DNA of 64,000 nucleotides from Clostridia bacterium (GCA_050951325.1 JBMNIW010000001.1:96001-160000); one strand, 5' to 3'; positions 29,955-56,722 are shown, counted from the first letter of the stretch. Numbers and translations are program-made. Notes: generated from the sequence alone by a model not told the origin.

Positions 29955-30014
29955 ACTGTATATACCGTATATATACAGTATAATCAGTATATACAACTAT
30001 AAAAAACATGTCAA
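29955..30014 (-). promoter_or_regulatory. sigmaA promoter plus YtrA-type operator
   Basis: TTGACA-17-TATACT (30014-29986); perfect 10-bp inverted repeat ACTGTATATA-N5-TATATACAGT (29955-29979). Confidence 0.75.
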
Positions 30015-30081
30015 GCATAAAATTCAACTTTCCTGAATAAAAGACATATAAATAGAACAGGCAAGGCTGTGGGGGATAAAA

Positions 30082-30591
30082 ATGAAGAAGTCAAAATATT
30101 TTCAAAGAAAGCCCGACCATCCAGTTATCAAGGTCTGCAAGCCAAACTCATATTATGCGAGTCTATTACGAGACAGCTATGCGGGCAGAGACAGTGAAAT
30201 GACAAAGACATGCCAGTATCTTTACCACCATTTTCTCATGTCCGAAATAAACAAGGAGATAGCCGACATATTGTACAATATAGCAAAAGTAGAAATGAAG
30301 CACCTGGAGATGCTTGCAAAACTAATACTTCAGCTGGACGGAGATCCTGTTTTTAAAGGCGGCGAGGAAGGCAAATCCTATTGGAATGCCAGTTATGTCT
30401 ACTACGGCATAAATATTTATGACATGTTGAGAAAGAATCTGGCCAGCGAATACAAGGCACTGAAAAACTACGAAGAGCACTTCCTTATCATACAGGACGA
30501 TTATATAAAAGATGTATTAAAAAGCATAATGGAAGATGAAAATATTCATATAGAACTGCTTAATTCAATTATCAAAGACTACTTCAGATAA
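30082..30591 (+). CDS. Ferritin-like / Mn-catalase (CotJC-like) family protein
   Basis: YAGRDSEM..QYLY; di-metal motifs EMKH and DENIH. Confidence 0.8.
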   Translation: MKKSKYFQRKPDHPVIKVCKPNSYYASLLRDSYAGRDSEMTKTCQYLYHHFLMSEINKEIADILYNIAKVEMKHLEMLAKLILQLDGDPVFKGGEEGKSYWNASYVYYGINIYDMLRKNLASEYKALKNYEEHFLIIQDDYIKDVLKSIMEDENIHIELLNSIIKDYFR

Positions 30592-30597
30592 ACAATC

Positions 30598-30626
30598 TTG
30601 ACACAAGCCCTCATTCAATGTAGATT
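30598..30626 (+). promoter_or_regulatory. Putative sigmaA promoter of AraC gene
   Basis: TTGACA-17-TAGATT. Confidence 0.55.
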
Positions 30627-30656
30627 AATAACAGCATAATGAAGAGACGGAGTGTC

Positions 30657-31712
30657 ATGAACAAGTACGATACATTTCTGAGCAAATACGAAGAACTGAA
30701 CGAAGAAGAGTTATTCTACAAACAATACCATATAGCAAAGCAAGACCCGTATAGCCTGAAAGAGTTTCTTCTTACGGTGGACAGAAAGGAAATGGACAAA
30801 CATGGGTACTGGCTTCCCGAGCTTGAATACAAATCATCGGATTACCTCAATGAGCAAATTATTGACAAGAAAGAGGACAATATCAGAGTTTTAATGCACA
30901 ACCGCTACACCCCCATGTTCGTCCACAAGCATGCCTTCTTTGAAATGGTATACATTTACAAGGGTAGTTGTGAAAACATAGTAGGAAACTACAACCTGGC
31001 AATGAAAGAAGGCGACATATGCATAATCGCACCTGATGTTGACCACAAGCTATCTGTATTCAATGACAGCTGCATTGCTTTCAATATTATTATTCGAAGG
31101 AGCACATTCACATCCACTTTCATGGACCTTTTCAATGACGATGCGCTGCTTTCCCTCTTTTTCAACAGAATATTGTGCTCAAAAAATGCAAACAGCTACA
31201 TCATGTTCTCAATAAAAAACGACAAGTACCTTAAGTACCTTTTGAACATGCTGATTGTGGAAGGAATGAAAAAGGACAAGAATTACAAAATTGTCACAGA
31301 AAATCTTTTAAGAAGCGCATTCTGCCTTATGCTTAGAAAAAACAGCGAAACAATCCTTTCAAACACAACACAGGTTTACACACCCATTGTAGTAGACATG
31401 ATAAATTACATACAGGAAAACTTCAGAACAGTATCTTTAAAGGAACTTGCAAACACCTTCAATTACTCACCGGATTATGTGGGAAAACTGATTAAAAACC
31501 ATACAGGAGTTTCATTCATGCAAATCCTGCAGGATGTAAGGTTCAAAAAGGCCTGCAGTCTTCTGGTTTCGACAAACCTGAGAGTAATAGACATATGCTG
31601 TCAGATAGGATATGAATCCGTGGAATTCTTCACACGCAGATTCAAGGAGCTATACGGCAAGACCCCCGCAGAGTACAGAAATCAATCTATTTCTTCTTCC
31701 TTTTCATCCTGA
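30657..31712 (+). CDS. AraC-family transcriptional regulator
   Basis: Cupin HKHAFFEMVY...GDICIIAPDVDH; C-terminal HTH GYESVEFFTRRFK..YGKTPAEYR. Confidence 0.93.
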   Translation: MNKYDTFLSKYEELNEEELFYKQYHIAKQDPYSLKEFLLTVDRKEMDKHGYWLPELEYKSSDYLNEQIIDKKEDNIRVLMHNRYTPMFVHKHAFFEMVYIYKGSCENIVGNYNLAMKEGDICIIAPDVDHKLSVFNDSCIAFNIIIRRSTFTSTFMDLFNDDALLSLFFNRILCSKNANSYIMFSIKNDKYLKYLLNMLIVEGMKKDKNYKIVTENLLRSAFCLMLRKNSETILSNTTQVYTPIVVDMINYIQENFRTVSLKELANTFNYSPDYVGKLIKNHTGVSFMQILQDVRFKKACSLLVSTNLRVIDICCQIGYESVEFFTRRFKELYGKTPAEYRNQSISSSFSS

Positions 31713-32211
31713 AATAGTCTTCAGGATAACCATAAACGAAATTACCTTCGTCAAACAGCATGTTTTCCTTGTTTATCTTAATCTGTACCCTCATGAGTAA
31801 TTTCTGAATATTGGCCCTTTCGTGCTCATTAACATCAAACTCTGCACCGTACTCATACAAGCCATTGCCCTCCATCTCATTCATCCAAACAACATAAGCC
31901 AGCGCTGATATCTTTTCTTCCATAATCTCACTTGAAAATACGTAAAAAATGTCCTTACCCACAGGCAGATTCAAATCAGATACAAAACAGAATCCACCAG
32001 GCCCCATATTCCTCACCAAAACATGGGTTTTGCTGGCAGTAACCTCTTTGCCTTTGACATAAACAGGAGTCATCTCCGTTTCAAGGAGATATGGGAATTT
32101 GACTCTAAAGTACTTTCTACTTATTTCATACGGAGCAAACACCGTTTTCTTTATGTAACGGCTGTATCCTCTATCCTCTTCTACATTTTTGTCCTTTCTG
32201 TCAAAGGTCAT
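31687..32211 (-). CDS. PilZ-domain protein
   Basis: RKYFR and NMGPGG motifs, YGAEF; own promoter TTGACA-17-TAATAT at 32277-32249. Confidence 0.75.
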   Translation of the reverse strand: MTFDRKDKNVEEDRGYSRYIKKTVFAPYEISRKYFRVKFPYLLETEMTPVYVKGKEVTASKTHVLVRNMGPGGFCFVSDLNLPVGKDIFYVFSSEIMEEKISALAYVVWMNEMEGNGLYEYGAEFDVNEHERANIQKLLMRVQIKINKENMLFDEGNFVYGYPEDYFRMKRKKK

Positions 32212-32304
32212 ACCCACCACCCTTATTCTGCAGACATCTTCTATCCCAATATTACATAACAATGGAAATATTGTCAATCTCATATAAAGAAAAACGCCAG
32301 AGAT

Positions 32305-34752
32305 TTATTTCTCTGGCATTCTTCTATTCATAAATGGATTTTTTAATATGACTGTCGCCATAACAATCGAGGCAAGAACTAAAGTTGCAATCCTAGTTAG
32401 AGGACTCTTCTCATAAGAATACGTTGCATACTGGTATTTGAATCTGCCATTTGGAGCAACATCACCATTTATGTAAAAATCCATAATATCTCCATCAACT
32501 TGCATGTTGTCGGACCATTTGAAGTTAATAACGAACTTGTCGCCCTTAATGCCCAGCATGAATTTGGGCACCTTTATTTGCAGTCTTTTCCCCTTCAACG
32601 AATACTCAACAAGCCCAACTTCTTCCCAGTTCCAACCTCCTGTGGATTTTTCCAGCACTGCCGTTCCATTTGAAGTTTTCTGCCTGTTTACAACATAATG
32701 AAAGCTCTCCCAATTGGCATCCTGACGTCCGCCAATTTCAATAAACAGACGCATCCAAGACTTGTCGCCCTCTCCAACTATATTCTCAGTACATTCCACC
32801 ATGAAGTATACAAACTCATTATCTCTTGCCACCTTGGCTGATACTAAATCATTTCTGCCTGTCCTGTTTTCATAGCTGATGGGTTTGTTTGTCTTTTTAT
32901 CCACATATCCATTAAAATCCCTGTCAAATGTGTTTCCCTTGTATGCAAAGAAATTAGGGGATACATCCTTCCACATATCCTCATCAGAATATATGTCAAT
33001 AGTCTTTTTACCGGATGCTTTTGGAACAGGCTTTGTTCCCTTGAACCTTCTAATATTACTAACCATCTGGTAATAGTAGTGGTCTTTCAAATCTCCTTTG
33101 GAAGGTTCTATATCCCTGGAATATTCGTCACTGAACTGGTCGGGAAAAGCATTCTTTACTCCTCCCCATTCCTCAAATCTTCCTGCAACCCATTCATTCC
33201 ACCCAGTTATAAATATAATCTCCGGATCTATTTCAATGGCATAATCCCACTGTTCCTGAAAATTGACACCGTAGAGCTTTGCATTCTTTCTCGTATCATA
33301 CTTCCCTTCCTTGACGGAGTAATGCCTGCCATAGACATTCTCGCCATTCATGGCGGTAAGTCCTCTTTTTGCATTCCAGTTCTGGGCAACAGATACGGTG
33401 ACCTGTTCAGGCGTTCCATCCGGATTTCTTGCGATTAACTGAGGATATATCGAAATCCAGTTCCAGATTATGTAGTTTTTCTTAATCTCCGGTTGAATCG
33501 CTCCGTAAATCAAAGGATTTCCGTTTTCGTCCCTTACCTGCACATTGTCCCACGTATGGCTGTGGTTTGGCGGTCTGAAATTGAAAAACTCCATAATCTC
33601 TGCATCAACCAAATCGGTTTGTGGATTCAACTTCCCAGGGTAGCACATAATCAAAGGTTTTCCCTTCCAATAGAACCATAAATCCTTGTACCTTCCCTGA
33701 GAATAGATTTCCCTGTATAGTTCTCTTAGTTGTGTTGCCACAAAATCATAGTCAAATATAGGAAGGATAAAGGAAATCTGCGGGGTCTTGACTCCATCCA
33801 ATCGTGCCTTTGCAAAGACTTCAAGAAGAACAAGAACCTCATCCACAAAGGTTAACTCATTGTTTGTGTTGTCAAAAAAGATGGCATCCACACCTGCATT
33901 GGCCAGCATCTCTGCTTGTTTTCTTAATACCCATCTGTCATCCGTCCTGTAATATCCGTAAATCGGCTCATTCCAGAAGAAAACTCCTCCTGTTCCCCAA
34001 TGCTCACTGTCCCAGTCATGAACAATTTCAGGATGTTCCTTCAGTATTTCCGTAATATTTCTCATTCCTTTGGCATGGTTGTGGGTATGCCAGGTATGGA
34101 AAAACAATCCCACATATTTGTCATTTCGCACCTTGCCTGAAATTTGCGTTGATGGTACTTCCCTTCCCAAGCCATCCGTCGCCACCCATGTGTCAAACCC
34201 GTCGAACAACTCAATGGAATTGTCCGACAGTTTGTCAAGACCTTTTGTGTTTATACGCATCTTAAGACTTCCAAAACGCTCGCTAAAATTCTCATACAGC
34301 CTTACATTTTCCTTCTCTGGATACATGATATTTACATCAAGAAAACCATTACCACCCATCTTCTCCATAACAAACAGATACTCACCTTTTTTAGGCATAA
34401 CGGAAGATAAATCCCATGTATAGTATGTATTCCTGGGAAAAAACTCGTCCCTTTTCTCACAATGGACAGGCTTGCCGTTTACGGTCTTTGCAATATTTTC
34501 ATCCCATTTATACAGTTTGAACTCAACAATGCAATTTCGATTAACAGACGCATTGGCTATAAATATATCAATTTTTGAAAAACTTGAAGTTGCATTGAAT
34601 TGAACGCACAACCCAGTAAGCCTGGTTTGGACCACCTTTTCAGGCTCTATGAACAAATCCATATCCTCACCAACTTCCTCAGCATTAAACCCGATAATTG
34701 TAAATATCGCACCAACAAGAATAACCGTTAAAGCAAAACATAACTTTTTCAT
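32305..34752 (-). CDS. Secreted GH99/GH71-like protein with C-terminal beta-domain and membrane anchor
   Basis: Signal peptide; YVGLFFHTWH, EPIYGYY, AGVDAIFFDNTN, ITGWNEW, YSRDIEP; C-terminal hydrophobic helix. Confidence 0.7.
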   Translation of the reverse strand: MKKLCFALTVILVGAIFTIIGFNAEEVGEDMDLFIEPEKVVQTRLTGLCVQFNATSSFSKIDIFIANASVNRNCIVEFKLYKWDENIAKTVNGKPVHCEKRDEFFPRNTYYTWDLSSVMPKKGEYLFVMEKMGGNGFLDVNIMYPEKENVRLYENFSERFGSLKMRINTKGLDKLSDNSIELFDGFDTWVATDGLGREVPSTQISGKVRNDKYVGLFFHTWHTHNHAKGMRNITEILKEHPEIVHDWDSEHWGTGGVFFWNEPIYGYYRTDDRWVLRKQAEMLANAGVDAIFFDNTNNELTFVDEVLVLLEVFAKARLDGVKTPQISFILPIFDYDFVATQLRELYREIYSQGRYKDLWFYWKGKPLIMCYPGKLNPQTDLVDAEIMEFFNFRPPNHSHTWDNVQVRDENGNPLIYGAIQPEIKKNYIIWNWISIYPQLIARNPDGTPEQVTVSVAQNWNAKRGLTAMNGENVYGRHYSVKEGKYDTRKNAKLYGVNFQEQWDYAIEIDPEIIFITGWNEWVAGRFEEWGGVKNAFPDQFSDEYSRDIEPSKGDLKDHYYYQMVSNIRRFKGTKPVPKASGKKTIDIYSDEDMWKDVSPNFFAYKGNTFDRDFNGYVDKKTNKPISYENRTGRNDLVSAKVARDNEFVYFMVECTENIVGEGDKSWMRLFIEIGGRQDANWESFHYVVNRQKTSNGTAVLEKSTGGWNWEEVGLVEYSLKGKRLQIKVPKFMLGIKGDKFVINFKWSDNMQVDGDIMDFYINGDVAPNGRFKYQYATYSYEKSPLTRIATLVLASIVMATVILKNPFMNRRMPEK

Positions 34753-35579
34753 GACTCTTTATCCCGTTTGCTTCTTACAAAGAAAACGCCCACCATCACA
34801 ACCACTATTACCGCCAGAATAATGAAAAGAATATACAGGTCGTTTCCTTTTGCATCCTTTTCCTTCCCGGTATTCTCAGTTGGCTGTGGCACAGGAGTTC
34901 TGGTATCAAGTCTTGAATAGGCATCCGCTTCTTCCCTGGTTTTAAAGAAACCAATATACTTGTACGCCATTGTATCCTTGTCGCTGATTGTCCCACTCCT
35001 GTATGTACCAATTCTAAGTTGTGTTATGACACCTGCATACTCCCAGGCAAGCACGCCATTCATGTCAAGGGTAATCTCTTGCCACTCATTATTCGCAGTA
35101 ATACTATACAAATATGCATTGCCATCGTCATAAGCTGGAACATTGGTGCTGATCCAGTGGAATGCGGAAGTGCTGGCAGTATCAGAATTTGCCTTGTACA
35201 TGACTTTTATGTATTTGTACTTGCTTGTATCAACATGATACTTCTCAGGCATGTCAGTCCCTGTATTCGTACCTGGTTTAGCTGCAACTATATACGGATC
35301 CATTACCCCGGTCTGGGTATGGGCGGTGAAGACGCATGCCTTCTCATTCTTGTCATATGAAAAGGAAACCCTGGTAAGATTATATTTCCCTAGAAAACTC
35401 AGACCATCATCCCAATATATGTTCCAATTGTCTCCTTGTTCTGGATCAGTTGCAACAATCTCATAGTTGGGCTCAATAGAAAAATCAAAAATTATTGCCT
35501 CTGATGCCATAACACTAAACGAACCGATAAAAGAACACAAAACAACAAAAAACATGGATAAAACTATGAATCGTTTCAT
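34749..35579 (-). CDS. Secreted CBM-like beta-sandwich protein with C-terminal TM
   Basis: Signal peptide; DPYI..YKYIKV..WQEITLDM..W..GVITQLR; TM plus RSKR. Confidence 0.6.
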   Translation of the reverse strand: MKRFIVLSMFFVVLCSFIGSFSVMASEAIIFDFSIEPNYEIVATDPEQGDNWNIYWDDGLSFLGKYNLTRVSFSYDKNEKACVFTAHTQTGVMDPYIVAAKPGTNTGTDMPEKYHVDTSKYKYIKVMYKANSDTASTSAFHWISTNVPAYDDGNAYLYSITANNEWQEITLDMNGVLAWEYAGVITQLRIGTYRSGTISDKDTMAYKYIGFFKTREEADAYSRLDTRTPVPQPTENTGKEKDAKGNDLYILFIILAVIVVVMVGVFFVRSKRDKES

Positions 35580-35584
35580 GAAAC

Positions 35585-36475
35585 CTACCTCTCAAAATCA
35601 ACATGGCAATTTATAAAAAGATTGGCGATATCCTTCATTATCTCCTCGCTTGGTTCTTTCAAATCAGACAAGGAATAATCCTCACACAAAGCAAAATACT
35701 TGGAAATTCCCAAATTGTGATATGGCAGCAAAGAAACCTTCTCAACACCTGTTACACCAAGCATTTTTTCCACTTCCTTAATTACATCGACCCTGTCATT
35801 AATTCCCGGTATGATTGGTATCCTTACCACCACATCGCATCCCGACTGTACAAGCTTATGCAAATTGCTGCATACAAGCTCATAATCTCCCTTAAGCATA
35901 TCATACACTTCATTGTTGCCTTTTATGTCGAAATAAAAGGTGTTGGTAAAGGGAATCACCTTCTCAAAAAGAGAAAACGGCACATTACCAGCCGTATCTA
36001 TAATCACATGAATATTATTTTTACTTAACTTTTCTGCCAATGCGGATACAAAAGACGCCTGAAGCAAAGGCTCTCCACCCGATATTGTAACTCCACCACC
36101 GGACTCCTGCATGTATTCATAATCCTTGTAGAGAGTATCAAACACTTCATCCACGGTCATGTATCTGCCTGAAAGTTTCAAAGCTTTTGTTGTACATGTC
36201 TTTTCACACATGCCACAAAAGTCACACTTGTCAACTTCCACAACATGTTCACCATCCTTAATAGAGTGAACACCTCTTGTGCAGACAATTTCACAAAGCC
36301 TACATTTTGCACATAGATTTTTATGAAACATCAGCCTTGGCTTTTGGGATATGGTCTCGGGATTATGACACCAGGGGCACAAAAGATTGCACCCCTGCAT
36401 AAACACAGTTGTCCTTATGCCCGGACCGTCTCCTAATGAAAAATGCTGTATATTGCTTATCAAACCCTTATCCAT
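35585..36475 (-). CDS. Glycyl-radical enzyme activating enzyme (radical SAM, ferredoxin insert)
   Basis: DGPGIRTTVF, CNLLCPWC-HNPE, two CxxCxxCxxxC, SGGEPL. Confidence 0.95.
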   Translation of the reverse strand: MDKGLISNIQHFSLGDGPGIRTTVFMQGCNLLCPWCHNPETISQKPRLMFHKNLCAKCRLCEIVCTRGVHSIKDGEHVVEVDKCDFCGMCEKTCTTKALKLSGRYMTVDEVFDTLYKDYEYMQESGGGVTISGGEPLLQASFVSALAEKLSKNNIHVIIDTAGNVPFSLFEKVIPFTNTFYFDIKGNNEVYDMLKGDYELVCSNLHKLVQSGCDVVVRIPIIPGINDRVDVIKEVEKMLGVTGVEKVSLLPYHNLGISKYFALCEDYSLSDLKEPSEEIMKDIANLFINCHVDFER

Positions 36476-38636
36476 GTTCAGTCCTTCTTAATATGTCAAG
36501 CTTTACTTCGTTCGACAAAGAATTGTAGTATGCACTGAATCCCGACACCCTTACCACCAGATCAGTATAATTCTCAGGATTCTTCATTGCATCAATAAGT
36601 ATTTCTTTTGATACCGCATTTATCTGAATCTCCTGACCGCCATTCTTTAAATACACCTTTATCATGTCAAGCAGTTTCTTCCTTTTCACCGGATCCGTGA
36701 ACATATTCCTTGTGTACTTCTGATTAACAACCGTTCCACAGGACACTTTGGTGTAATCCGGCTTGGTAAGGGACTTTAGAGCCAATGTAGGACCATGCAC
36801 ATCTCTTCCATATACGGGAGAGGCAGCATCACTAAGAGGTTCTCCATCCCTTCTTCCATCGGGAGTAGCTGCAATCTCCATACCAGCATATATATTACTA
36901 ATATTTGCAGCAATGGCAATATAGAAGGCACCGCCATCATGGGTTTTGTATTTGGAGAATATCTCATAATGCACATTTACGAACCACTTGGCGTATTTGT
37001 CTACAAAATCATCATCGTTTCCATATTTGGGAGCTGACAAAACCTTTGCCAAAACTTCTTCATATCCTTCAAAATTATTCAGTATTGCTTCTTTAAGAAG
37101 CGAAAGGTCAATCTCCCTTTTGTTGTAAACAAACATCTCAACAGCGGCCAAAGAGTCTGCAAAGGTTCCAATGCCCATGCATGCAGCACCATGGACAGAC
37201 GGATACAAAGCTCCGCCATCATTTATGTCAAGACCTCTTTCAATACACGGATAGCAGAAACAGGACAAAAACGGCTGCATGTAGTTGTATGTATTGTATC
37301 TTTCATTTTCATTCTTGAACATTCTGACATACATGGCCGCACCGTGTTCCAACTGCTTTCTCAATGCATGAAGAAAATCATCCATGGTCTTCAACTCGGA
37401 AACATCCCCCGTTGAAGGCCCAAGGCGCACGCCCGTATGCATGCACACCCCATTGTTAAGAACAAGCTCTATATACTTGGGTGAGTTGAATCTTCCATCC
37501 GACCAGGGCGGTTGTTTGCCTGGGATGAAGTTTTCTATGCAGCCTACCATGCAGTAGTTTCTAGCATCCTCTATACTGTAACCATGTCTTAGAAGGGCTG
37601 GCACATTCACATCGTCATTCATAAGCGCTGGATATCCCAAACCCGTTCCAATAACCTTAAGGCATTCATCAAGAAAACCCTCCGGTATGCCGGAATATAT
37701 TCTGGCAGAAAGATTCGGTCCTGGCACATTGCATATCTCCACCGCCTTGAGTATGAGGTAGGAAAGCTCATTGACACCACCCAATCCATTGGGCAAAACT
37801 CCGCCAATGGCAATATTCACCACATCATCTCCACCAAAATAGCGACATTCGTAGATTTTATACAATGTGCAGCTTAAGAGGTCCAAGGCTTCCTTGTCAT
37901 TTATCCTGCCTTCTTCAATATCTTTTTTGTAGTATGGGTAAAGATACTGATCCAGCCTTCCCAAAGCCATTGCATATCTGCCCTCATACAAAAAAGCCGT
38001 GTGAACAAACCATACAAGCTGAAGAGCCTCACGAAAAGTTTCGGGTTTGAAATATGAGACCTTTTTACAGGTTTCGTAAACCTTCATAAGGTTTTCATAC
38101 TCGCAGCTTCCTTTTTCAAAAGCTTCTGCTCTTTCCAAAGCCTTGTCCGAATACCCTCTTACCATGTCGGAAAAAGCCTGCATGGAAATCTCGCACGCTT
38201 CAAGAAACACTTGCTTCTTTTTATCGCCTTTATGTACCAGTTTTGATTTCTCTATCTTCTCCAATGTGCCTTTTATACCATCACTCAAAAACGTCTCATA
38301 ATCAGGTGCATAATGGTCAAAATTCGTACCAAAATGCCTCGAGCCGTAATTTGCACACACATTCTGTGCATGCTGAAGCGCCGTATTTGATATGACACTT
38401 TCATCTTCAATGGCGCCTCTTATGCTGCCTGCAATCATGTCATTATCATATACGTGTTTTCTGTGTTTTCTGAACACAGAGGCAACTGCATACGCTCTTG
38501 CAATCGGCACCTCGGAATCAAAATGCTCCGCATAGCCTTCAAACATGTAATAAGGGGTTACCCGCCTTGCAGCCTGCGGCCATTTCTCGTTAATTTCTTT
38601 TTTCAACCTCTCAAGAGGCGTGAGCATATAAATCAC
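36468..38636 (-). CDS. Glycyl-radical enzyme, non-PFL, unassigned substrate
   Basis: Gly loop RVSGFSAY, single-Cys loop VGCIE, GRLDQY, PKYGNDD, ATPDGR; adjacent activase. Confidence 0.93.
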   Translation of the reverse strand: MIYMLTPLERLKKEINEKWPQAARRVTPYYMFEGYAEHFDSEVPIARAYAVASVFRKHRKHVYDNDMIAGSIRGAIEDESVISNTALQHAQNVCANYGSRHFGTNFDHYAPDYETFLSDGIKGTLEKIEKSKLVHKGDKKKQVFLEACEISMQAFSDMVRGYSDKALERAEAFEKGSCEYENLMKVYETCKKVSYFKPETFREALQLVWFVHTAFLYEGRYAMALGRLDQYLYPYYKKDIEEGRINDKEALDLLSCTLYKIYECRYFGGDDVVNIAIGGVLPNGLGGVNELSYLILKAVEICNVPGPNLSARIYSGIPEGFLDECLKVIGTGLGYPALMNDDVNVPALLRHGYSIEDARNYCMVGCIENFIPGKQPPWSDGRFNSPKYIELVLNNGVCMHTGVRLGPSTGDVSELKTMDDFLHALRKQLEHGAAMYVRMFKNENERYNTYNYMQPFLSCFCYPCIERGLDINDGGALYPSVHGAACMGIGTFADSLAAVEMFVYNKREIDLSLLKEAILNNFEGYEEVLAKVLSAPKYGNDDDFVDKYAKWFVNVHYEIFSKYKTHDGGAFYIAIAANISNIYAGMEIAATPDGRRDGEPLSDAASPVYGRDVHGPTLALKSLTKPDYTKVSCGTVVNQKYTRNMFTDPVKRKKLLDMIKVYLKNGGQEIQINAVSKEILIDAMKNPENYTDLVVRVSGFSAYYNSLSNEVKLDILRRTEHG

Positions 38637-39718
38637 CCGCCAACCAGTATCGTCTTCACATTTTTGCCCTGTTTTGCATTCTCAAAAGCCTTGTTGATAT
38701 CGGAAAGCAGATATTCCGTAATCATTGAATCAATAACAGGGTGCAAATCTCTGTTTTCTTCAAGGAATTTTACATACTCTTCAATATCCACAGCAGAATA
38801 CTGGGACGAACCAATAATATGCAGTGCCTTGAAAGTTATAACCTGGGGTGGAAGCGGTATTGTTCCTGAGTTGGAATACTGCCCTGGAACCAGGTAAACT
38901 CCTCTGTTTCTTAACATGTCAATACCTTGCAAAAAGGCATCCTTGTTGCCGCTGGCTTCCACAGCCAAATCAGCACCAAGACCACCGCTTACACTTTTAA
39001 TATATCCATCTATCTCTTCAAAGGTATTCTTCTCAAGACTGAAAATCTTTGTAGATCCAAAGCTTTTTGCCAGCTCTTCTCTTTTTTTATTCTCCCTGCC
39101 TGTTATAGCAATTACATTTTCCACCTTCAAACTGGCAAGGTAAGCAACTGCAAACATTCCAACAGGCCCCAATCCCTGAACCACGCAAGTTTTCAAGTTC
39201 TCCAAATCCACATTCGCCCTTTTTGCCAGTGAAAACGCATGTATTACAGTAGAGCCTGCACAGGCAAAAACACTGGCAGTCTTGGGATTAATGCTTTTTG
39301 GTATCTTTACAAGATTCTTTATAGGTGAATAGTTGTATTCTCCAAAACCGCCCCAGAAATGAGGTTCATCGTAAGGATTTCCACCATTTGTCACACCCAT
39401 GTTTACACAGTTGGCATCATCTCCCGTCTTGCAGAGAAGGCACTCTTCGCATGGTACTGCAATGGTGGCAATTACATTATCACCTACATTTAGAGTATCA
39501 CTTTCCGAGCCCAGTTCCACCACTTCTCCCACAAACTCATGCCCAATTACTTTAGGCGGCTCTATTCCAAGCTTTCCGTTTAATATATGCAAATCCGTTC
39601 CACAAACACCGCTGGCCACAAGGCGCAAAAGCGCCATGTCCTTCTGTGGTTTTGTCAGTGGAAACTCTCTAATTTCAAACTCCTTGTTCGCTCCTTGATA
39701 TACTGCCGCTTTTGGCAC
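38633..39718 (-). CDS. Zn-dependent medium-chain alcohol dehydrogenase
   Basis: GVCGTDLH, GHE, structural Zn CEECLLC..C, GLGPVG. Confidence 0.92.
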   Translation of the reverse strand: MPKAAVYQGANKEFEIREFPLTKPQKDMALLRLVASGVCGTDLHILNGKLGIEPPKVIGHEFVGEVVELGSESDTLNVGDNVIATIAVPCEECLLCKTGDDANCVNMGVTNGGNPYDEPHFWGGFGEYNYSPIKNLVKIPKSINPKTASVFACAGSTVIHAFSLAKRANVDLENLKTCVVQGLGPVGMFAVAYLASLKVENVIAITGRENKKREELAKSFGSTKIFSLEKNTFEEIDGYIKSVSGGLGADLAVEASGNKDAFLQGIDMLRNRGVYLVPGQYSNSGTIPLPPQVITFKALHIIGSSQYSAVDIEEYVKFLEENRDLHPVIDSMITEYLLSDINKAFENAKQGKNVKTILVGG

Positions 39719-39733
39719 TTAAAACACCTCCAA

Positions 39734-40123
39734 TTACATTACCTTTACATAAAAATTCCTTGTTCTGGGTCCGTCAAACTCACAGAAATATATACCCTGC
39801 CATGTGCCAAGCACAAGTTTTCCCTTTTCCACAATAACAGTAACCGAGGAACCCATGCAGCTTGCTTTAAGATGCGCACTGGAATTCCCCTCAAAATGCC
39901 TGAACTCCCTTCTGTCGGGAAAAGCCTTGTCAAGTCCGTATAAAATATCATGCACCACATCAGGATCCGCATTCTCGTTAATTGTAATTCCGGCAGTGGT
40001 GTGGGGACAGAAAACAACACATATGCCATTTTCAACACCGCTTTCTGCCACTGCGCTTCTTACACGCGATGTAATGTTGTAAAAGTTTTCTTTCTCTGTC
40101 TCAATAGTAAACTTTTTTAACAT
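39734..40123 (-). CDS. yjbQ: YjbQ/UPF0047 family protein
   Basis: PHTTAGITINENADPDV, HFEGNSSAHLK, LGTWQGIYFCEFDGPR. Confidence 0.93.
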   Translation of the reverse strand: MLKKFTIETEKENFYNITSRVRSAVAESGVENGICVVFCPHTTAGITINENADPDVVHDILYGLDKAFPDRREFRHFEGNSSAHLKASCMGSSVTVIVEKGKLVLGTWQGIYFCEFDGPRTRNFYVKVM

Positions 40124-40134
40124 ACGAATCTCCT

Positions 40135-42396
40135 TCAACCCACATTTCTGTCCGATTTATATACTTCAAACTCAGCCAATTGGAACAAATAACCGGTTGT
40201 AGCATACGTCATCTTCATCATTTCCTTCGATACAATCCTCACAAAAGATGCGTCCACCTTATCAAAAACAAAAACCCTTGGTCTTTTGTCTTCCTTGCCA
40301 GAACCTTCATAAAAGTGTACTACATCCCAGTCCGCTCCATTTGTGGAAACCTGCACTTCCAGTTTCTTTGGAAAATATGCGCCGTTATGTGCAGGATAAA
40401 GACAAACCGCATCAATATTATAAACATCTCCAAGTTCAACCACCACCCACTCTTCCGCATAAGGGTCATCCATGTGCAGTTCGTGTTCGGAAGACCATCC
40501 GGAATGCTTTGAGTTGTGCTCCGTTATCCCATCGGTTAGATGCATTTTTGTAAATCCTACCAGTTCATTCTCGTAGGAAGAAGACACTAGTACATTTTTG
40601 CCCAGTGCCACATTATGCTCTTTTGTCATGTTCTTTTCCTTTGCCTTGAAAAGCTCATACGGCATAATGGATCCATCATCATTGTATATCTCAATCTCCC
40701 CTATTTCCACAACATGTTTGCCATCCACAAAAGCCGTTCCATCCATCCTTATCTTTACGTACCTTGCGGATACCGTATCAAAAATGTGGCTGGGGATTGT
40801 ATTTTCATCTTCCACCTTTACAATCTCCTCCCACTCTTTCTTGTCGTCCGAGCACAAGATTGTATAAGTTTTTAGAAACAATTCCCTGTCATCCTCAACA
40901 GGATACAAATCTATTCTATTTATATCCACCTTCCTCTTCAAATCCACCATAAAATATATTTCACTATCAGCATCTCCTTCATACCTCCACCCTTTTGAGC
41001 CTTGCGACGGTATCCTTATACCATCCACCGCATTGCGGACATAGTATCCGCCTTCTCCAAGAGAAGAGGTGGCAAACACTGGTTTGTTGTATGCAAGATT
41101 CTTTTCATCATCATCCTTGTATGGCTTTGTCAAATCCACGCCTTCTTCAAGGGCATACAGTCTGAAGCCCCCCGCAGCAATCTCACACTTGATTCTGCCC
41201 TTGTTTATCTTCGCTTCCTTTGCTTTTCCGCTGGTAACATCGTAAAGTTTGTCTATACCATTCAATTTTAATGTTATTTTCTCATCATCCTTGAAGTTCT
41301 TGTTTACAATCATGATATAGTTTCTGCCGTCAAATCTGTCTTTCATAAGAGAGACTATAAAGTCCTTGTCGTCGACAGCCTCAACATGCCAGCCTTTTTC
41401 CAGCATTGTGGTCTCCAAATCCTGTCTGCCATTATGATATATCTCTAGAGCATCCACTCTTCCAAGAATCTTTGATACCTTTTTAATATCCTTGTTTATC
41501 CTGGCAATACCATCAAAGGTTTTACCTTTCTTTCCGTCCGGCGTTACAATTGCTTCAGTAAACTCCTCACTTCTTTCAGTAGGAGTAAACCAGGTAAAAT
41601 ACTTTAAATTCTTAAAACCATAAGCCAAAGCAGCAGATGTATGGTATCTAGTTTCTGCAACTGTAGGCCTTCTAAAACCACCAATTACACCAATTGACTG
41701 TATGTACAAGGCGGTATCCACATTGTATTTAAGACCCGTTTCCCAAATCAGTTTGAAGTTTGGAAACATCTGTGGGACGGAACCTTCCTGAAGGTCAAAA
41801 GGATATTGGTCAAAAGACAGGTACCTCAAATTCTCAGCACCTACAGAATTTATCCAGTCCTCTGCATGTCCTCTTGGGTCTTCAAGAGCAAACGCAGGCA
41901 GCATGTTAAGCTGGGTTATGCAGCCAGGATGCTCCTCTACCATGATTCTGGCCACCCTGCCAAAAGGATTTGCATTGCGGGGCTCATCAAGAACATAGTA
42001 ACCAACAACGCTATCATGATCCTTATACCTTCTTACCAGCTCCCTTATCTCTTCGTCACTCTTGGCAGGAAGATTAATAAAATCCTTGTCGCATATGGTA
42101 ATTTTTATACCCTTATCCTTGCATAATCTTAGTGTATTCTCAAGCGTTTCCTCGTCTGTGAATATTGGGTCGGTTCCCCATTCCAAAAGATCAATTCCAG
42201 CCTCCACCAGCAAATCATACTGCTCTTCCGTGGCATAGCCTTTCATGGGCGGCCAGAATACAGAAATTATTATCTCGCCGTCCCCGTATCCTCTGTATGT
42301 ATCCATTTCTCCCATCACCAACTCCTTTTCTTTTGTGCAAGATGTCAATAAAACGCATACAAGCATCAATAGTATTACTAGAATTCTTCTTGTCAT
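40135..42396 (-). CDS. Lipoprotein: putative clan GH-A-like barrel plus two F5/8 type C (CBM32-like) modules
   Basis: Lipobox LTSC; YYVLDEP, SFDQYP; repeats NLAYNKPVFATSS..VEIGEIEIY and NVALGKNVLVSSS..QLAEFEVY. Confidence 0.7.
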   Translation of the reverse strand: MTRRILVILLMLVCVLLTSCTKEKELVMGEMDTYRGYGDGEIIISVFWPPMKGYATEEQYDLLVEAGIDLLEWGTDPIFTDEETLENTLRLCKDKGIKITICDKDFINLPAKSDEEIRELVRRYKDHDSVVGYYVLDEPRNANPFGRVARIMVEEHPGCITQLNMLPAFALEDPRGHAEDWINSVGAENLRYLSFDQYPFDLQEGSVPQMFPNFKLIWETGLKYNVDTALYIQSIGVIGGFRRPTVAETRYHTSAALAYGFKNLKYFTWFTPTERSEEFTEAIVTPDGKKGKTFDGIARINKDIKKVSKILGRVDALEIYHNGRQDLETTMLEKGWHVEAVDDKDFIVSLMKDRFDGRNYIMIVNKNFKDDEKITLKLNGIDKLYDVTSGKAKEAKINKGRIKCEIAAGGFRLYALEEGVDLTKPYKDDDEKNLAYNKPVFATSSLGEGGYYVRNAVDGIRIPSQGSKGWRYEGDADSEIYFMVDLKRKVDINRIDLYPVEDDRELFLKTYTILCSDDKKEWEEIVKVEDENTIPSHIFDTVSARYVKIRMDGTAFVDGKHVVEIGEIEIYNDDGSIMPYELFKAKEKNMTKEHNVALGKNVLVSSSYENELVGFTKMHLTDGITEHNSKHSGWSSEHELHMDDPYAEEWVVVELGDVYNIDAVCLYPAHNGAYFPKKLEVQVSTNGADWDVVHFYEGSGKEDKRPRVFVFDKVDASFVRIVSKEMMKMTYATTGYLFQLAEFEVYKSDRNVG

Positions 42397-42444
42397 TTTA
42401 CATGCACCTGCTTTTTGTATACTAATGATTAGTATACCATATTT

Positions 42445-43572
42445 TTATCTCAGCATCTTCTGAAGTTTCTTGACGGAGTAAACAACTATTGCCACAACAA
42501 CCACGCCAACTGATATTAAGACTATAGTTAGAACTTGTTTGGTACGTGAAGGTTCTACAAGGTCATCAATTACTTCTGAAACAATTATTCTGTCAATTCC
42601 CATGAAGAGCTGATCCGCTATGTAAATCCTTCCGTTTGCAACAGCAACACCTGAGTAATTTACACATCCTGGCATCCAACCAACAACCTCAATCACTTTC
42701 AGATTTTTGTCCAGTATATACACATTGGATTCGCCTTCGCCATATCTTGAAACAAATACATAATCCTTGTGCAAATGTATTCCATATGCATCGTCAAGGG
42801 CAAATATCCTCTGAACCTTTTTCCAATCCTTATCAATTTTAAGAACCGTATCCCCTTTTGGGCGAAACATGTTCATGTTTGCAGTTAAGTATATGCTGCC
42901 GTCCTCATCAATCTTCAGGTAATTTGCCTGCGCAATAGGACTTCCCAAAAACTTGTCGAGATAAATCACACCATTTATTCCAACATCCTTTGCCGGAGAA
43001 ATATTGCCAGGGTCTGTTACATCATAGCATCTAACGGTATTCACATCGTAGTTGGTTATGAAGTACATGTAATATCTCTCGCCCTTTTTGGCAACTTCCA
43101 CACCGTTAATGCCTACCTTGCCATCAATCTCTATGACCTCATAGGACAACTCATTCAAATCCTTGTCAAGACAGGCAATGCTGACACTTCCTTCTGCAGT
43201 TTCACTGGTTATTCCTATGTACACATAACCTCTGTCATCTGTAGCAATGCCTTTTATCATTCCGTTGTCCTTGTCATAGTAACTTATGCCGTCAAAACTT
43301 CCATCAGAAGTGTTCAAACGGAACAAGCCATTTTCTCCATGGACAAGACCTACATAAAGGTATTTGCCATCTTTAGAAACGGCAAACCCCCTCATGTACA
43401 TGGCTCCCATTCTTTCCATGCCGTAAGTTTCAAGGACTGAAAACTGTGCGTTGGAAAAAGTTACTTTTCTGTTGGTTTCTTCTTCGCGCTCTTCCTCCTG
43501 GGCTGATATGCCAACAAGACTTGTCAGAACAAGTATGATTAAAAATATGCATGTAGCTCTTTTATGTACCAC
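42445..43572 (-). CDS. Secreted beta-propeller-like protein with C-terminal TM
   Basis: Signal peptide; repeated G(F/I)A.s.dG.YlYv blades; TM plus KK tail. Confidence 0.6.
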   Translation of the reverse strand: MVHKRATCIFLIILVLTSLVGISAQEEEREEETNRKVTFSNAQFSVLETYGMERMGAMYMRGFAVSKDGKYLYVGLVHGENGLFRLNTSDGSFDGISYYDKDNGMIKGIATDDRGYVYIGITSETAEGSVSIACLDKDLNELSYEVIEIDGKVGINGVEVAKKGERYYMYFITNYDVNTVRCYDVTDPGNISPAKDVGINGVIYLDKFLGSPIAQANYLKIDEDGSIYLTANMNMFRPKGDTVLKIDKDWKKVQRIFALDDAYGIHLHKDYVFVSRYGEGESNVYILDKNLKVIEVVGWMPGCVNYSGVAVANGRIYIADQLFMGIDRIIVSEVIDDLVEPSRTKQVLTIVLISVGVVVVAIVVYSVKKLQKMLR

Positions 43573-43727
43573 GATAATACCTCTCTTTTGATAATCTAAC
43601 ACGGGTATTATAATACGTCCTGACAGGTTTTTCAATCAATTCGGTCTGCAAGCACATATAAATAAAGTTGCATAACCTGTATTCCTAATGTTATCATATC
43701 TTTATACATTGCTTATGGAGGGATAAA

Positions 43728-44444
43728 ATGAAATCAACCAAAGGATGTTCATACTGCAATCACACAAGCTGTGTAAGCAAGGTACCCATCTTTTCCTCTC
43801 TTGATGAAAGGGATGCAAGAGACATCGCAGCATTGATAGAACACAAAAACTATAAAAAAGGCGACATTCTAATCAATGAGGGCGACAAGGTAAACTCCAT
43901 AACCATCATTAACACCGGTAGTGTAAAGGCATATAAATATACTCCAGACGGGAGGGAACAGATACTTTACGTACTGACTGAAGGTGACTTTTTCGGAGAA
44001 CGCAGCCTGTTAAGCTCTGAAAATGCCGATTTTTACATAGAAGCTCTTGATGATGTGGGAGTATGCGTGATAACAAAGGAAAGGTTCCACAGCCTACTTT
44101 ACACCCATCCAGACATCGCCATAAACATAATAGATGAACTGGGTAAAAGGATTGCAACAATGGAAAACGCATTCCAAAGCATTAGTGTGAGAAACCTCGA
44201 TGCACGCATTGCAGCACTTTTATTGGATTACGCAAACAGGTACGGCATAATGACAAAAGACGGGGTTAAAATAAATCTTCCCATAAGCAGAGAAGGCATG
44301 GCTAATCAGCTTGGTATTGCAAGAGAAACAATGAGCAGGAAGCTGAGCCAGCTTGAGAAAAAAGGTATAATTCTTTCAGAAAATAATAAAACTTTGATAA
44401 TTTACAACATGGATATGCTGGATGAAATGGCGGGGATAAAATAA
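43728..44444 (+). CDS. Crp/Fnr-family regulator with N-terminal Cys cluster
   Basis: CSYCNHTSC, GDFFGE, HTH GIARETMSRKL. Confidence 0.92.
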   Translation: MKSTKGCSYCNHTSCVSKVPIFSSLDERDARDIAALIEHKNYKKGDILINEGDKVNSITIINTGSVKAYKYTPDGREQILYVLTEGDFFGERSLLSSENADFYIEALDDVGVCVITKERFHSLLYTHPDIAINIIDELGKRIATMENAFQSISVRNLDARIAALLLDYANRYGIMTKDGVKINLPISREGMANQLGIARETMSRKLSQLEKKGIILSENNKTLIIYNMDMLDEMAGIK

Positions 44445-44561
44445 TGCTCCGCTGATTTATTTTTAATTAATATAATCACAAATTTATTTTAACATTCCTC
44501 ATTGTACATGACAAATTATTTAATAAATTAATGGTATACTTCACCCCACAAGTTAACGCCA

Positions 44562-44604
44562 GGTGATTCAAATCACATACAGGTTTCGTTTTACCGGGTA
44601 GAAT
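44562..44604 (+). promoter_or_regulatory. Crp/Fnr-type operator plus -10 element
   Basis: GGTGA-N6-TCACA (44562-44577) centred about -41.5 relative to a start implied by TAGAAT (44599-44604). Confidence 0.65.
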
Positions 44605-44635
44605 AAAACTGTAGAAAATGTAAAGGGGATGGAGC

Positions 44636-45106
44636 ATGACAACTTCGTACAATGACATGACCAAACAGGAACTTGCAAAACATATTGAAGAGAAATACCA
44701 CGCATACCTTAGGGAGAACCTCCCCAGGACATCGGAACTTCTTTACACTGTCCTAAGCAGCCACGGCAGTGATTACCATGTACTGTTTGAAGTATACAGC
44801 CTGTTTGGTCAATTGAGAGCAATCCTTGAGCAGCATTTGCTGAAAGAGGAAACACTGCTCTTCAGCAAGCTGGGCCATGGGAACAATGCTTTTGCAAAGA
44901 AAGAAATTGCAATAGACCTCATGAAAGAACACGACAGAACAAGGCATATTCTCAACAGGCTCAAGGATATAACCAATGGCTATGATACTACCAACATACT
45001 ATGTTCTGACTTCAAGCAGGCATATGTAATGTTGAACACAATAACGCAGGATTTGTTAAATCATTATTACCTTGAAGAAACCATGCTGTTAAAGGAGTTT
45101 GTTTAA
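44636..45106 (+). CDS. Hemerythrin-like di-iron protein (Ric/YtfE C-terminal-like)
   Basis: YHAYLRENLP, HLLKEETLLF, EHD, HYYLEE. Confidence 0.8.
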   Translation: MTTSYNDMTKQELAKHIEEKYHAYLRENLPRTSELLYTVLSSHGSDYHVLFEVYSLFGQLRAILEQHLLKEETLLFSKLGHGNNAFAKKEIAIDLMKEHDRTRHILNRLKDITNGYDTTNILCSDFKQAYVMLNTITQDLLNHYYLEETMLLKEFV

Positions 45107-45107
45107 A

Positions 45108-45332
45108 ATGGAAAAAGTTATTGATTTGAATAAAACCGTATTTGAATTATGCAATGAGGATCCTGCAATAAAAGACATACTGGCGGATTCAGGTTTTACC
45201 GACATAACAAAACCGGGAATGCTTCAAACCGCCGGCAGGTTCATGACAATACCAAAAGGAGCAAAGCTTAAGAAAATAGACTTGGAGACCATCAAAAAGA
45301 AATTTATTGATTTGGGATATGTAGTAAAATAA
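45108..45332 (+). CDS. DUF1858-domain protein
   Basis: IDLNKTVFEL..DP.IKDIL..GFTDI..PGMLQTAGRFMTIPKG. Confidence 0.8.
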   Translation: MEKVIDLNKTVFELCNEDPAIKDILADSGFTDITKPGMLQTAGRFMTIPKGAKLKKIDLETIKKKFIDLGYVVK

Positions 45333-45359
45333 TTCGCCCCTTCGGGGGTGAATTATTTT
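45326..45359. terminator. Bidirectional terminator
   Basis: AAAATAATTCGCCCC-TTCG-GGGGTGAATTATTTT between convergent genes. Confidence 0.75.
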
Positions 45360-46047
45360 ATGAATCTATCCTTATCTTTACAAAGAAATACGAAAGAAAA
45401 ACAAACGCAATCAGACATATGACAAGAAAGTCATCCCTAGTCTTGGGATTCCTGGGATTCATCGTATACACATTTATATTATCAACAGTCATCAATCCGT
45501 TTTCGCTGTAAAAACCCACACTCCCCTTTTCTGTCGCATACCGTTCTTTCAAATCAATACTGTATAAATGAGTATCATTTACAAATATGGAGACAGTAGA
45601 CCCATCGTCATAAATGGAATACTTGTTTAATATGGATAAATCAAAACCTTCGGGAAAACCTGCACTTTGTTCATGACCTTTTACACTCACTGTAAACTTG
45701 TCATAATCCCCAATCACAAAAGTTACACTAACATCTCCACCCCTTGTCACAACACCAAAGACTTCTGCGTCTTTTGGTGCCATATGAAACTCCAGCTTGT
45801 ATTGACAAAATTCTTTTTCTGAATAAAACTCTCCCGACAACTCAAACCTGCCCTGGCTTGTTATTTTTGATATATTTAAATCATCCATCACCCAGTCCTT
45901 TATCAAATCCTTTTCATCTTTTAACGAGCCGTCTTCAGTCTGGAAAGTCTCTTCAAACACAAGCGTATAGGAGTATTGTTTTAAATATTCATTTACATTG
46001 GCAACCAGCAGTATGCTAAGAAGAAATATGATAAAACCGTTTTTCAC
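45358..46047 (-). CDS. Secreted jelly-roll/ConA-like protein with NPKTRD-TM tail
   Basis: N-terminal hydrophobic helix; GSVGFYS..TVDNINV; C-terminal NPKTRD plus TM. Confidence 0.55.
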   Translation of the reverse strand: MKNGFIIFLLSILLVANVNEYLKQYSYTLVFEETFQTEDGSLKDEKDLIKDWVMDDLNISKITSQGRFELSGEFYSEKEFCQYKLEFHMAPKDAEVFGVVTRGGDVSVTFVIGDYDKFTVSVKGHEQSAGFPEGFDLSILNKYSIYDDGSTVSIFVNDTHLYSIDLKERYATEKGSVGFYSENGLMTVDNINVYTMNPRNPKTRDDFLVICLIAFVFLSYFFVKIRIDS

Positions 46048-46162
46048 GCCAATCTCCTTTTCCATTGTATAACTATACTAAATATGGACGGTTTGACTGA
46101 AAAATATTTTGTTATTTTTTCACAAGCAAAAACCCCGTTTACAACGGGGCTTTCACATGTGA

Positions 46163-54300: not shown

Positions 54301-54571
54301 GCCAAACCTCAAAATGGCCTTCCGCTTTATCATTCTTGGCAAACAGCACCTGGCAGTAATTATCCTGCGGACTTCCTGCCGATGTAGTCTGCATGTCAAA
54401 ATTAATGGAAAACCTGTCGCCTGGTGTATAAACAAAGTCTTCAACATCTTCCAGGCGTTCTTTAAAGAAAAAAGATGTATCAGGCAGAGTTAATGCAACA
54501 AACAGTAGTATAAAACACAGTCTTTTTATGCAAATGTAAATATGGTCTAAAAACATGGACAAATCGCTCAA
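51302..54571 (-). CDS. Surface protein: two LamG/ConA-like domains plus DUF2961 (GH172-like) and C-terminal TM
   Basis: Duplicated AK.DK..GH.EVWL.NGELAFYAPE; IRIYWDG..SDVSAPIGTFFG, YFPMPF, CEGDVRVFIDG, GSE; start uncertain. Confidence 0.75.
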   Translation of the reverse strand: MSDLSMFLDHIYICIKRLCFILLFVALTLPDTSFFFKERLEDVEDFVYTPGDRFSINFDMQTTSAGSPQDNYCQVLFAKNDKAEGHFEVWLYNGELAFYAPELNNGDAIYSGHYVNDGKWHNITVVYGDGIFKFYDNGEVLKELQVSGTISNIPAKLTFKRLNDGTYQYNGKLRNLAFYNEVLTESQIDELYNLRKQEWQEEGMNTMLVTLADEGLDLKRTDNGRHIVSNFDVNIGSSFSITGVVRTSQKDGIAVIFAKGDKINGHYEVWLNNGELAFYAPEMNFNSSVYSGVNIADGKKHHFAVVYDGEILMFYVDGKVKSGSFVSGHVSDSVMDASIGALIDGTFPYEGYIEDLTIYNYPLDVSEIRKILPKDIEVEILLPEEFHVEGNGCKPDEFQPTVPLRGISRLVYPQALPLVDFSAMVNYEGSISKAGDNADWDWGMYQDEKGEWVLMETYGPGCLYNFTQHRYPTSPEPTFRFYFDDEKEPRYEIKLSEFGRKEPFVKPLADIYEGPEDGGRGPIWVVRSFIPMEFKKYCKVTSDIKLEGHDKAKGEGGWGHITYVKYDTYNVYKREIGVEKLKNMAENHTHDPKYSEKNEYREIKGLTINAGESVKIFDKKAEGSIASIKLYLAGENVTHSVLKDLWIRIYWDGHEESDVSAPIGTFFGNQYNLSGCENHHLMLGMSLKLGEYLKCYNYFPMPFWERAVVELNNSSMRDIDIHWAEIGFTPSSVCRYDKQKTGYFVSSEYYPKTENVQGKNSVIANVEGSGHMVYGVMSGYGIMNGCEGDVRVFIDGRKSPEIESDGSESWASYGWGFVTPPQANPFSGYNGAYNSNSYWSMVRLMLGDSYYFKQSIRFELEHGGANEGLGCHSGQIFLYMLPESMEAYVVTDEIDVSDKESLDKHDYTVTGSYDTKTVYSAYANGINTDSKEGLIHVDFNGRISFYVNIDKNNRGVILNRTSSQQVGRHCANIYVDDVLVEEAKWYYADNNPYYQWLDDSFQIPEKYTKGKDRIRITIEPVEVDGVKTWNHAKYQVVSLLFREEIAQEELVNPDVKDKFFTLPLLLALGLLVVAGTAVHYIRRKKREGS

Positions 54572-56524: not shown

Positions 56525-56722
56525 TTTTCTTCCTCCTACATTTTGCTGCAGTAATTGTACCATACATGTTCCGAAAAGTATAACGAATATTATGTCCTTT
56601 CCAAAATTTATAATGAAATAAAAAGAGGGGTATGTATAATGTAAATACTGTGATAAAATAAACACAATGGATTAAGTTGCACTGAAAACTGATTTTGATA
56701 ACCAGAATTATGGAGGGAAACC

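Follow-up and report, generated by a model that had tools for sequence, protein, structure and literature searches.

A three-gene module encoding an oxygen-sensitive glycyl radical enzyme (GRE), its activating enzyme (activase) and a zinc-dependent alcohol dehydrogenase (ADH) lies on the minus strand of a 64,000-nt stretch of Clostridia bacterium DNA (GCA_050951325.1 JBMNIW010000001.1:96001-160000; this whole stretch is the window, and coordinates are counted from its first letter). We are highly confident that this module is real and unassigned; it is widespread, and its unusual active site, as read from the sequence, predicts an anionic substrate. A preliminary description of the window had placed the GRE in a dedicated pathway, fed with an unusual sugar or polyol by surface glycosidases encoded in the same operon together with a YjbQ protein, yet the link of the module to these glycosidases and to YjbQ is mostly local to this genome. 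We regard the GRE/activase/Zn-ADH trio as the functional unit, usually under a divergent AraC gene and common to many Clostridia, which here is rearranged, with the ADH first, and surrounded by surface glycan-type genes with which it has no conserved partnership. Recent assignments of GREs have each revealed new anaerobic microbiome chemistry, and whole GRE clades remain untested according to section 7 of a 2026 review (PMC13450708). The core module comprises:

36468..38636, minus strand: GRE; likely start ATG 38627, from which residues are numbered
35585..36475, minus strand: GRE activating enzyme, with a radical SAM CxxxCxxC and two ferredoxin motifs
38633..39718, minus strand: Zn-dependent medium-chain ADH, TM0436-like; best PDB match 1VJ0 (Thermotoga)

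The GRE lies outside the characterised families

The features of the superfamily are all present, namely the Gly loop, the Cys loop, a 10-stranded barrel and an adjacent radical-SAM activase, and the protein read from ATG 38627 agrees with a 719-aa database protein (P0001). Yet for each of the 12 NCBIfam models that the GRE matched, its score falls far short of the cut-off. It scores 457 bits against a cut-off of 678 for glycerol/propanediol dehydratase (TIGR01774), 420 against 1100 for HypD, 399 against 1050 for CutC, 361 and 354 against 1000 for the sulfonate GREs HpfG and HpsG, and 329 against 1109 for YbiW/PflD (NF007437). Among the decarboxylase models it reaches 270 against 1150 bits for HPAD and 266 against 1100 for IAD, PAD not being among the matches, and arylacetate decarboxylase (AAD) is matched in the PDB at 331 bits. 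The closest solved structure, both by sequence and by fold, is the glycerol dehydratase (GD) of C. butyricum (PDB 1R8W) at 36% identity, and identity to six reference GREs spans 31-36%. All 120 homologues listed are at least 56% identical to the GRE and mostly 700-725 aa long, and the closest relatives show 81-87% identity; at about 715 aa, the clade is about 70 aa shorter than the reference GREs.

In a tree with the six reference GREs, the window GRE and the GREs of related loci (described below) group together with a support of 1.0; 10 of the 80 loci, which hold no GRE of at least 640 aa, were not included, and an unrelated paralogue from L034, also present in the tree, is placed apart from the main group and does not enter later counts. 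By model scores, PDB search, fold match and tree the GRE matches no characterised family, in agreement with the preliminary description. The accessible part of PMC13450708 lists no enzyme that matches the clade, that of PMC11528403 holds nothing on it, and our literature search found no description, although most subscription journals lay outside this search and an earlier description is possible. An identity as inositol dehydratase was considered and rejected: it found no literature support and no mention in the accessible part of PMC13450708. The activase scores above the cut-off of TIGR02494 and below all specific activase models.

The ADH is the conserved partner

The neighbourhood was followed in a GTDB scan of 325 relatives, of which the best 80 loci were examined, all from Bacillota and nearly all from Clostridia. 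The linkage of GRE and ADH is recurrent: an orthologous Zn-ADH (47-61% identity) is present in 55 of the 80 loci, in 54 of them on the same strand and at most 3.5 kb downstream of the GRE, and of the 60 loci whose flank is long enough, 50 contain it. This linkage covers 27 of the 37 clusters into which 69 full-length GREs fall at 70% identity. An activase was found in 47 loci, two of these activases belonging to a neighbouring different GRE, and the ADH is more tightly linked to the GRE than the activase is. A divergent AraC gene is seen in 30 of the 68 loci with upstream room. Using contigs of exactly equal size as an independent proxy for co-occurrence, 15 of the 120 top ADH matches pair with a top GRE match, and the GH99-like matches give two pairings, both on very long contigs. 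The ADH precedes the GRE in none of the homologous loci, and the arrangement in this genome is therefore derived.

The preliminary description had tied the GRE to the ADH, YjbQ and the surface proteins alike, and only the first of these linkages is conserved. YjbQ, the 276-aa anchored protein and a 396-aa propeller-like protein of the operon occur in 0 of 80 loci, and profile searches place the GH99-like family in 4 loci (in-operon in 1) and the GH42-like family in 4 (in-operon in 2). Some glycosidase-type gene stands in the same-strand chain, by a rough rule of gaps below 200 nt, in 12 of the 80 loci; these genes come from eight different families and the count includes no background rate, and a loose carbohydrate context around the module remains. 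An SGNH esterase family lies inside the module in 15 loci (e.g. L036:13080-14066) and an Eis-like acetyltransferase in 10, the two co-occurring only in L057, and a solute-binding lipoprotein is present in 7. GH10, lipase and uxuA neighbours are each confined to one related group, and no independent weight was given to them. No shell genes were seen among the ~170 of ~1000 neighbour open reading frames scanned, and no small-gene cluster recurs.

The clade is widespread in Clostridia of gut, rumen and digester assemblies, and two named isolates, Hydrogeniiclostridium mannosilyticum ASD2818 (L020) and Fumia xinanensis NSJ-33 (L036), carry the module and make direct study possible. In L039 and L071 the GRE is split into two open reading frames, either by real breaks or by assembly errors. 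Three further short GREs stand beside the module (L030:2324-4444, L034:1724-3856 and L070:4145-6130), one of which is without the His and each of which has a different CxE; these Clostridia therefore hold more unassigned GREs. The three share only ~29% identity, both among themselves and with the clade, and the idea that they form a partner subfamily was rejected. In L070:17900-19849 and L072:6529-8508 a helix-turn-helix-fused NagK-like kinase and MurQ adjoin the module.

The active site suggests an anionic hydroxy acid

The residues on which our reading of the GRE is built are:

38313..38315, minus strand: His105, equivalent to GD His164; in 120 of 120 listed homologues and 69 of 69 locus GREs
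37533..37541, minus strand: Cys363-Ile-Glu365, the CxE motif; in 120 of 120 listed homologues
37491..37499, minus strand: Asp377 (GD Asp447) and Arg379 (position of PFL Arg435 and HypD Tyr450), a predicted carboxylate site
36540..36542, minus strand: Gly696 of the RVSGF radical loop; in 120 of 120 listed homologues

His105, Cys363, Glu365 and Asp377, invariant among the listed homologues, align with His164, Cys433, Glu435 and Asp447 of GD, in which Glu435 and His164 are assigned to deprotonation and water loss (PMC13450708, section 5.6). All 120 also carry GCIE and with it the CxE that marks GRE 1,2-eliminases and isomerases (PMC13450708, sections 5.6-5.7). Five other GD residues change throughout the clade: His281 to Tyr, Ser282 to Ala, Tyr339 to Val, Tyr640 to Ala and Ser642 to Asn. 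We take these residues, whose positions we located on the GD sequence, to line the pocket for the C3-OH; their replacement opens the pocket, and the C3-OH pocket is lost.

Arg379 is present in 119 of the 120 listed homologues and in 69 of 69 locus GREs. It aligns gaplessly to Arg435 of E. coli PFL, which binds pyruvate (PMC13450708, section 5.3), and it lies 16 residues past the catalytic Cys, at the same offset as HypD Tyr450 on strand 6. Asn575 and Asp268 of the GRE align with HypD Thr645 and Asp339, so that three GRE residues fall in the amine/carboxylate region of HypD, where Tyr450 and Thr645 bind the carboxylate of hydroxyproline and Asp339 acts through water (PMC7077986); in both HypD and CutC, the strand bearing the Tyr450 position is turned towards the substrate (PMC8473560). 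Taken together, the active site suggests an anionic hydroxy acid over the neutral sugar or polyol that had been proposed, a judgement drawn from aligned residues. Because carboxylate-site residues are joined to the eliminase set, the substrate is most likely a small polyhydroxy carboxylate, the leading predicted candidates being sugar acids, tetronates among them, and hydroxy amino acids. Sugar acids do not appear as a substrate class among the characterised GREs in the accessible part of PMC13450708.

The clade shares CxE and the His with HypD; of the HypD residues Asp278, Ser334 and Phe340, Asp278 and Phe340 are not kept. The partner of HypD is a pyrroline-5-carboxylate reductase, whereas that of the clade is a Zn-ADH. 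CutC has an Asp at the position of GD His164, in contrast to the invariant His105 of the clade. The order AraC-GRE-activase-ADH is shared with C. butyricum dhaB1-dhaB2-dhaT, which has no shell genes in the fetched stretch, although the ADH there is iron-type and that of the module Zn-type. From GD itself, whose four catalytic residues it keeps, the clade differs in its replaced C3-OH pocket, its shorter length and its added Arg379.

In the ADH, Cys40, His61 and Cys154 are conserved, and the third Zn ligand would be a Cys, as in the alcohol dehydrogenase 6IQD. By general rules, an aldehyde or ketone reductase would fit this protein better than a polyol dehydrogenase, and the absence of an acidic residue after its second Rossmann strand presumably hints at NADPH.

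We consider it rather likely that the GRE is a C-O lyase, and somewhat likely that its substrate is a carboxylate; the full proposal, a C-O lyase for a polyhydroxy, sugar-acid-like carboxylate with the ADH reducing the carbonyl product, stands at about an even chance. In such a mechanism the activase would install the radical on Gly696, and the Cys363 thiyl would take a hydrogen from a carbinol carbon held by Glu365 while His105 and Asp377 aid the departure of the neighbouring OH or OR. Arg379, together with Asn575 and Asp268, would anchor the substrate carboxylate, and the ADH would reduce the resulting aldehyde or ketone. The module may then act as an electron-sink or detoxifying branch, as in the conversion of glycerol to 1,3-propanediol; by analogy it resembles the electron-sink branch of C. 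butyricum, yet its GRE is not a member of the glycerol dehydratase family. The dedicated ADH offers a ready coupled assay for the GRE, and the Arg379 clue would narrow the substrate search to hydroxy acids.

Several points weigh against this proposal. The residues were equated by aligning sequences and not by docking or from model coordinates, the alignment to GD leaves the register ambiguous by one residue between Asp377 and Arg379, and Arg379 could instead bind phosphate or sulfonate. CxE is found in the HPAD decarboxylase and in isomerases as well. The reading of the ADH Zn ligands and cofactor preference is a prediction from general rules. The neighbourhood counts are those of the best 80 of 325 relatives; within them, the ADH is missing in 10 of the 60 loci with room, and 20 of 80 (e.g. 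L012, L013, L054 and L067) have the GRE and ADH side by side while the fetched flank contains no activase. In the 80 loci the module shows no consistent link to a transporter, an aldehyde dehydrogenase or an upstream enzyme, and the context therefore does not name the substrate.

The operon and its surface proteins

Around the core module the operon and its signals are:

40135..42396, minus strand: 753-aa lipoprotein, GH42-like barrel and two F5/8 (CBM32-type) domains, by profile searches
39734..40138, minus strand: YjbQ/UPF0047, outside the conserved module; likely start ATG 40123; TIGR00149 at 160 against a cut-off of 68 bits
34749..35579, minus strand: secreted, membrane-anchored 276-aa protein with a galactose-binding-like domain, a lead only
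32305..34752, minus strand: secreted, membrane-anchored 815-aa protein, GH99/GH71-like barrel at residues ~185-573, by fold model
42445..43635, minus strand: eighth gene, secreted and C-terminally anchored; likely start GTG 43572
43607..43635, minus strand: sigma-70-like promoter, candidate operon start, from 11 of 12 consensus matches only
32280..32325, minus strand: hairpin with U-tract, likely bidirectional intrinsic terminator, overlapping the last stop codon

All seven minus-strand open reading frames of the preliminary description were recovered at the same coordinates, and its annotations of YjbQ, Zn-ADH, GRE, activase and the GH99-like and GH-like/CBM32 proteins hold. With the longest starts the junctions measure -4, 15, -4, -8, 5 and -4 nt, all gaps being below 20 nt as had been described; judged by their ribosome-binding sites, the GRE and yjbQ more likely start at internal ATGs (38627 and 40123), and with these starts two of the overlaps probably become short gaps of +5 and +11 nt. 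A scan of the operon proteins found no shell or transporter gene, as had been noted, which sets the operon apart from those of microcompartment-associated GREs.

The eighth gene had gone unnoticed. It is separated by 48 nt from the next gene of the operon, and its 396-aa product is beta-propeller-like by eye and has no family match. The best sigma-70-like site of a 16-kb scan (43635-43607, 11/12) lies before it, in a scan that gave 49 such sites against 43 expected by chance. At the other end, the hairpin at 32280-32325 has a stability of -23.3 kcal/mol (z -7.3, with 0 of 200 shuffles as stable) and is also detected when the plus strand is read. Given the additional upstream gene, the good promoter and the terminator, one eight-gene transcript from promoter to terminator is plausible on these predicted signals. 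An Rfam search of 30000-46000 gave no match. GC content and third-position GC of the operon genes equal those of their neighbours, and there is therefore no sign of a recent foreign insertion.

In the family of the 753-aa lipoprotein, 26 of 39 members match the GH42 beta-galactosidase profile weakly; a single-sequence PDB search with the lipoprotein itself returned the F5/8 domains only. Asp137-Glu138 and Gln233 are invariant, the Asp-Glu pair in 39 of 39 members. At the position of the GH42 nucleophile, a Glu on strand 7, the GH42 profile puts a hydrophobic residue or the invariant Gln, and no Glu. An Asp-Glu pair is shared with the beta-N-acetylgalactosaminidases of GH123 and related families, in which this substrate-assisted motif is accompanied by DUF4091 (PMC11087588); domain scans found no DUF4091 in the lipoprotein or its family.

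For the 815-aa protein a single-sequence PDB search gave no match and a family profile search only chance matches, and fold prediction was therefore used. The model (predicted local distance difference test score 93.6) shares its barrel with GH99 endo-alpha-mannosidase (6HMH; Z 20.3, root-mean-square deviation 4.1 over 275 aligned residues) and with GH71 (Z 15.1), while the sequence is 17-18% identical to these and has extra domains and a membrane anchor. Against the catalytic Glu pair of GH99 (E333/E336, three residues apart), the family has Glu520 (98 of 98) and Ala523 (94 of 98), by a tentative motif mapping. In its Asn-Glu-Trp-x-Ala, Ala would stand where the GH99 motif puts the second Glu. 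The invariant Asp538, Asp547 and Glu549 could serve as catalytic acids. We regard both proteins as members of large, putative glycosidase-like families with non-standard catalytic residues.

In L077 the GH99-like gene is in four pieces, either by real breaks or by an assembly error. A frameshifted GH99-like paralogue of the 815-aa gene, in three frames and 27-46% identical, lies 8 kb away at 22302-24916 (minus strand), and a second, truncated member of the GH42-like profile family stands at the window edge (63673-63999, minus strand).

Alternative explanations

Could the surface proteins and the module work together after all? A combined reading, in which a sugar-acid dehydratase or ether lyase has been recruited alongside two non-canonical surface glycosidase families that supply its acidic sugar, for instance a uronate with O-methyl or O-acetyl groups or a sugar of the muramate type, seems unlikely; if true, it would give gut and digester Clostridia a new anaerobic way of using acids derived from glycans.

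Improbable, too, is the original proposal that these surface glycosidases release an unusual sugar for dedicated processing by the GRE and ADH, of which the unassigned GRE and its ADH linkage stand while the surface genes and YjbQ are mostly local. The plausible single transcript with promoter and terminator fits it, as do the GH42-like family, which follows the module within the operon of L055 and of L067 and flanks it in L036, the fragmented GH99-like gene following it in L077, and the 12 of 80 loci with some in-chain glycosidase. However, YjbQ, anchor and propeller protein appear in none of the 80 loci and the glycosidase partners are spread over eight families; the window has more than one copy of each GH-like family, and a transporter is lacking; the gene order here is unlike that of all 55 ADH-bearing loci; and both GH-like proteins lack part of any known catalytic pair, leaving their activity putative.

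The GRE might instead cleave a C-C bond of a hydroxy or keto acid, as a decarboxylase or formate-lyase-like enzyme, with the ADH acting on the released carbonyl. The equivalent of PFL Arg435, the RVSG loop and the gapless segment from Cys loop to strand are in keeping with this, the Cys-loop fragment matches arylacetate decarboxylase 7E7L best, and HPAD also carries CxE. We nonetheless hold it to be quite improbable. The GRE, 27% identical to PFL and bearing CxE, has a single Cys in its loop, whereas PFL needs two adjacent Cys (418 and 419; PMC13450708), and the position of PFL Arg176 is a His, as the motifs on either side imply. Over its full length the GRE scores better against GD-type eliminases than against PFL or decarboxylases, and no gene for coenzyme A transfer or a small subunit is nearby.

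Very doubtful is a substrate of the acidic amino-sugar type, such as N-acetylmuramate or one of its relatives from cell wall or capsule, whose ether or anhydro bond would be cleaved as in the anhydro-sugar-phosphate isomerases YbiW and PflD. These isomerases share CxE with the clade, and by cleaving a carbohydrate C-O bond they offer the closest precedent among sugars (PMC13450708, section 5.7), yet they are 31% and 34% identical and lie outside the clade, which lacks a ~10-residue loop before strand 3 and has no recurrent aldolase or phosphotransferase-system gene beside the module in the clusters examined. A true MurQ above cut-off stands beside the module in L070 and L072, and NagK-like kinases are found in L027, L057, L070 and L072; the SGNH esterase (15/80) and Eis-like acetyltransferase (10/80), the invariant Asp-Glu pair of the GH42-like family, which resembles that of N-acetylhexosaminidases, and Arg379, which suits a lactyl carboxylate, point the same way. 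But MurQ occurs in only 2 of 80 loci and not in the window, the GH42-like protein gave no match to the DUF4091 domain of GH123, and radical cleavage at a free C4-OH would presumably yield a deoxy-keto sugar that MurQ could not use.

A known reaction, with the GRE as a divergent glycerol or 1,2-diol dehydratase served by a different ADH, is very unlikely indeed, for although GD tops the sequence and fold matches, the layout corresponds to that of the C. butyricum dha locus and lipase genes are in-chain in one subclade, identity to GD is only 36%, the five GD residues His281, Ser282, Tyr339, Tyr640 and Ser642 are replaced across the clade, and an enzyme for a neutral diol would not be expected to bury an invariant Arg.

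Neighbouring genes

Divergent from the operon promoter are genes for a Crp/Fnr regulator and a hemerythrin-like protein (43728-45332, plus strand). Fnr-type boxes numbered 53 against 74 expected by chance, and we therefore claim no link between this Crp/Fnr gene and the operon. A convergent AraC gene (30639-31712) was considered as regulator of the module and rejected, since it resembles the AraC family of the module in the DNA-binding domain only. Other secreted or anchored glycan-type proteins are encoded outside the operon at 25048-27549, 45358-46065, 51302-54571, 54575-56665 and 56723-58987; these five include DUF2961 with LamG, melibiase-like and unassigned proteins, and the genome is rich in proteins of this kind.

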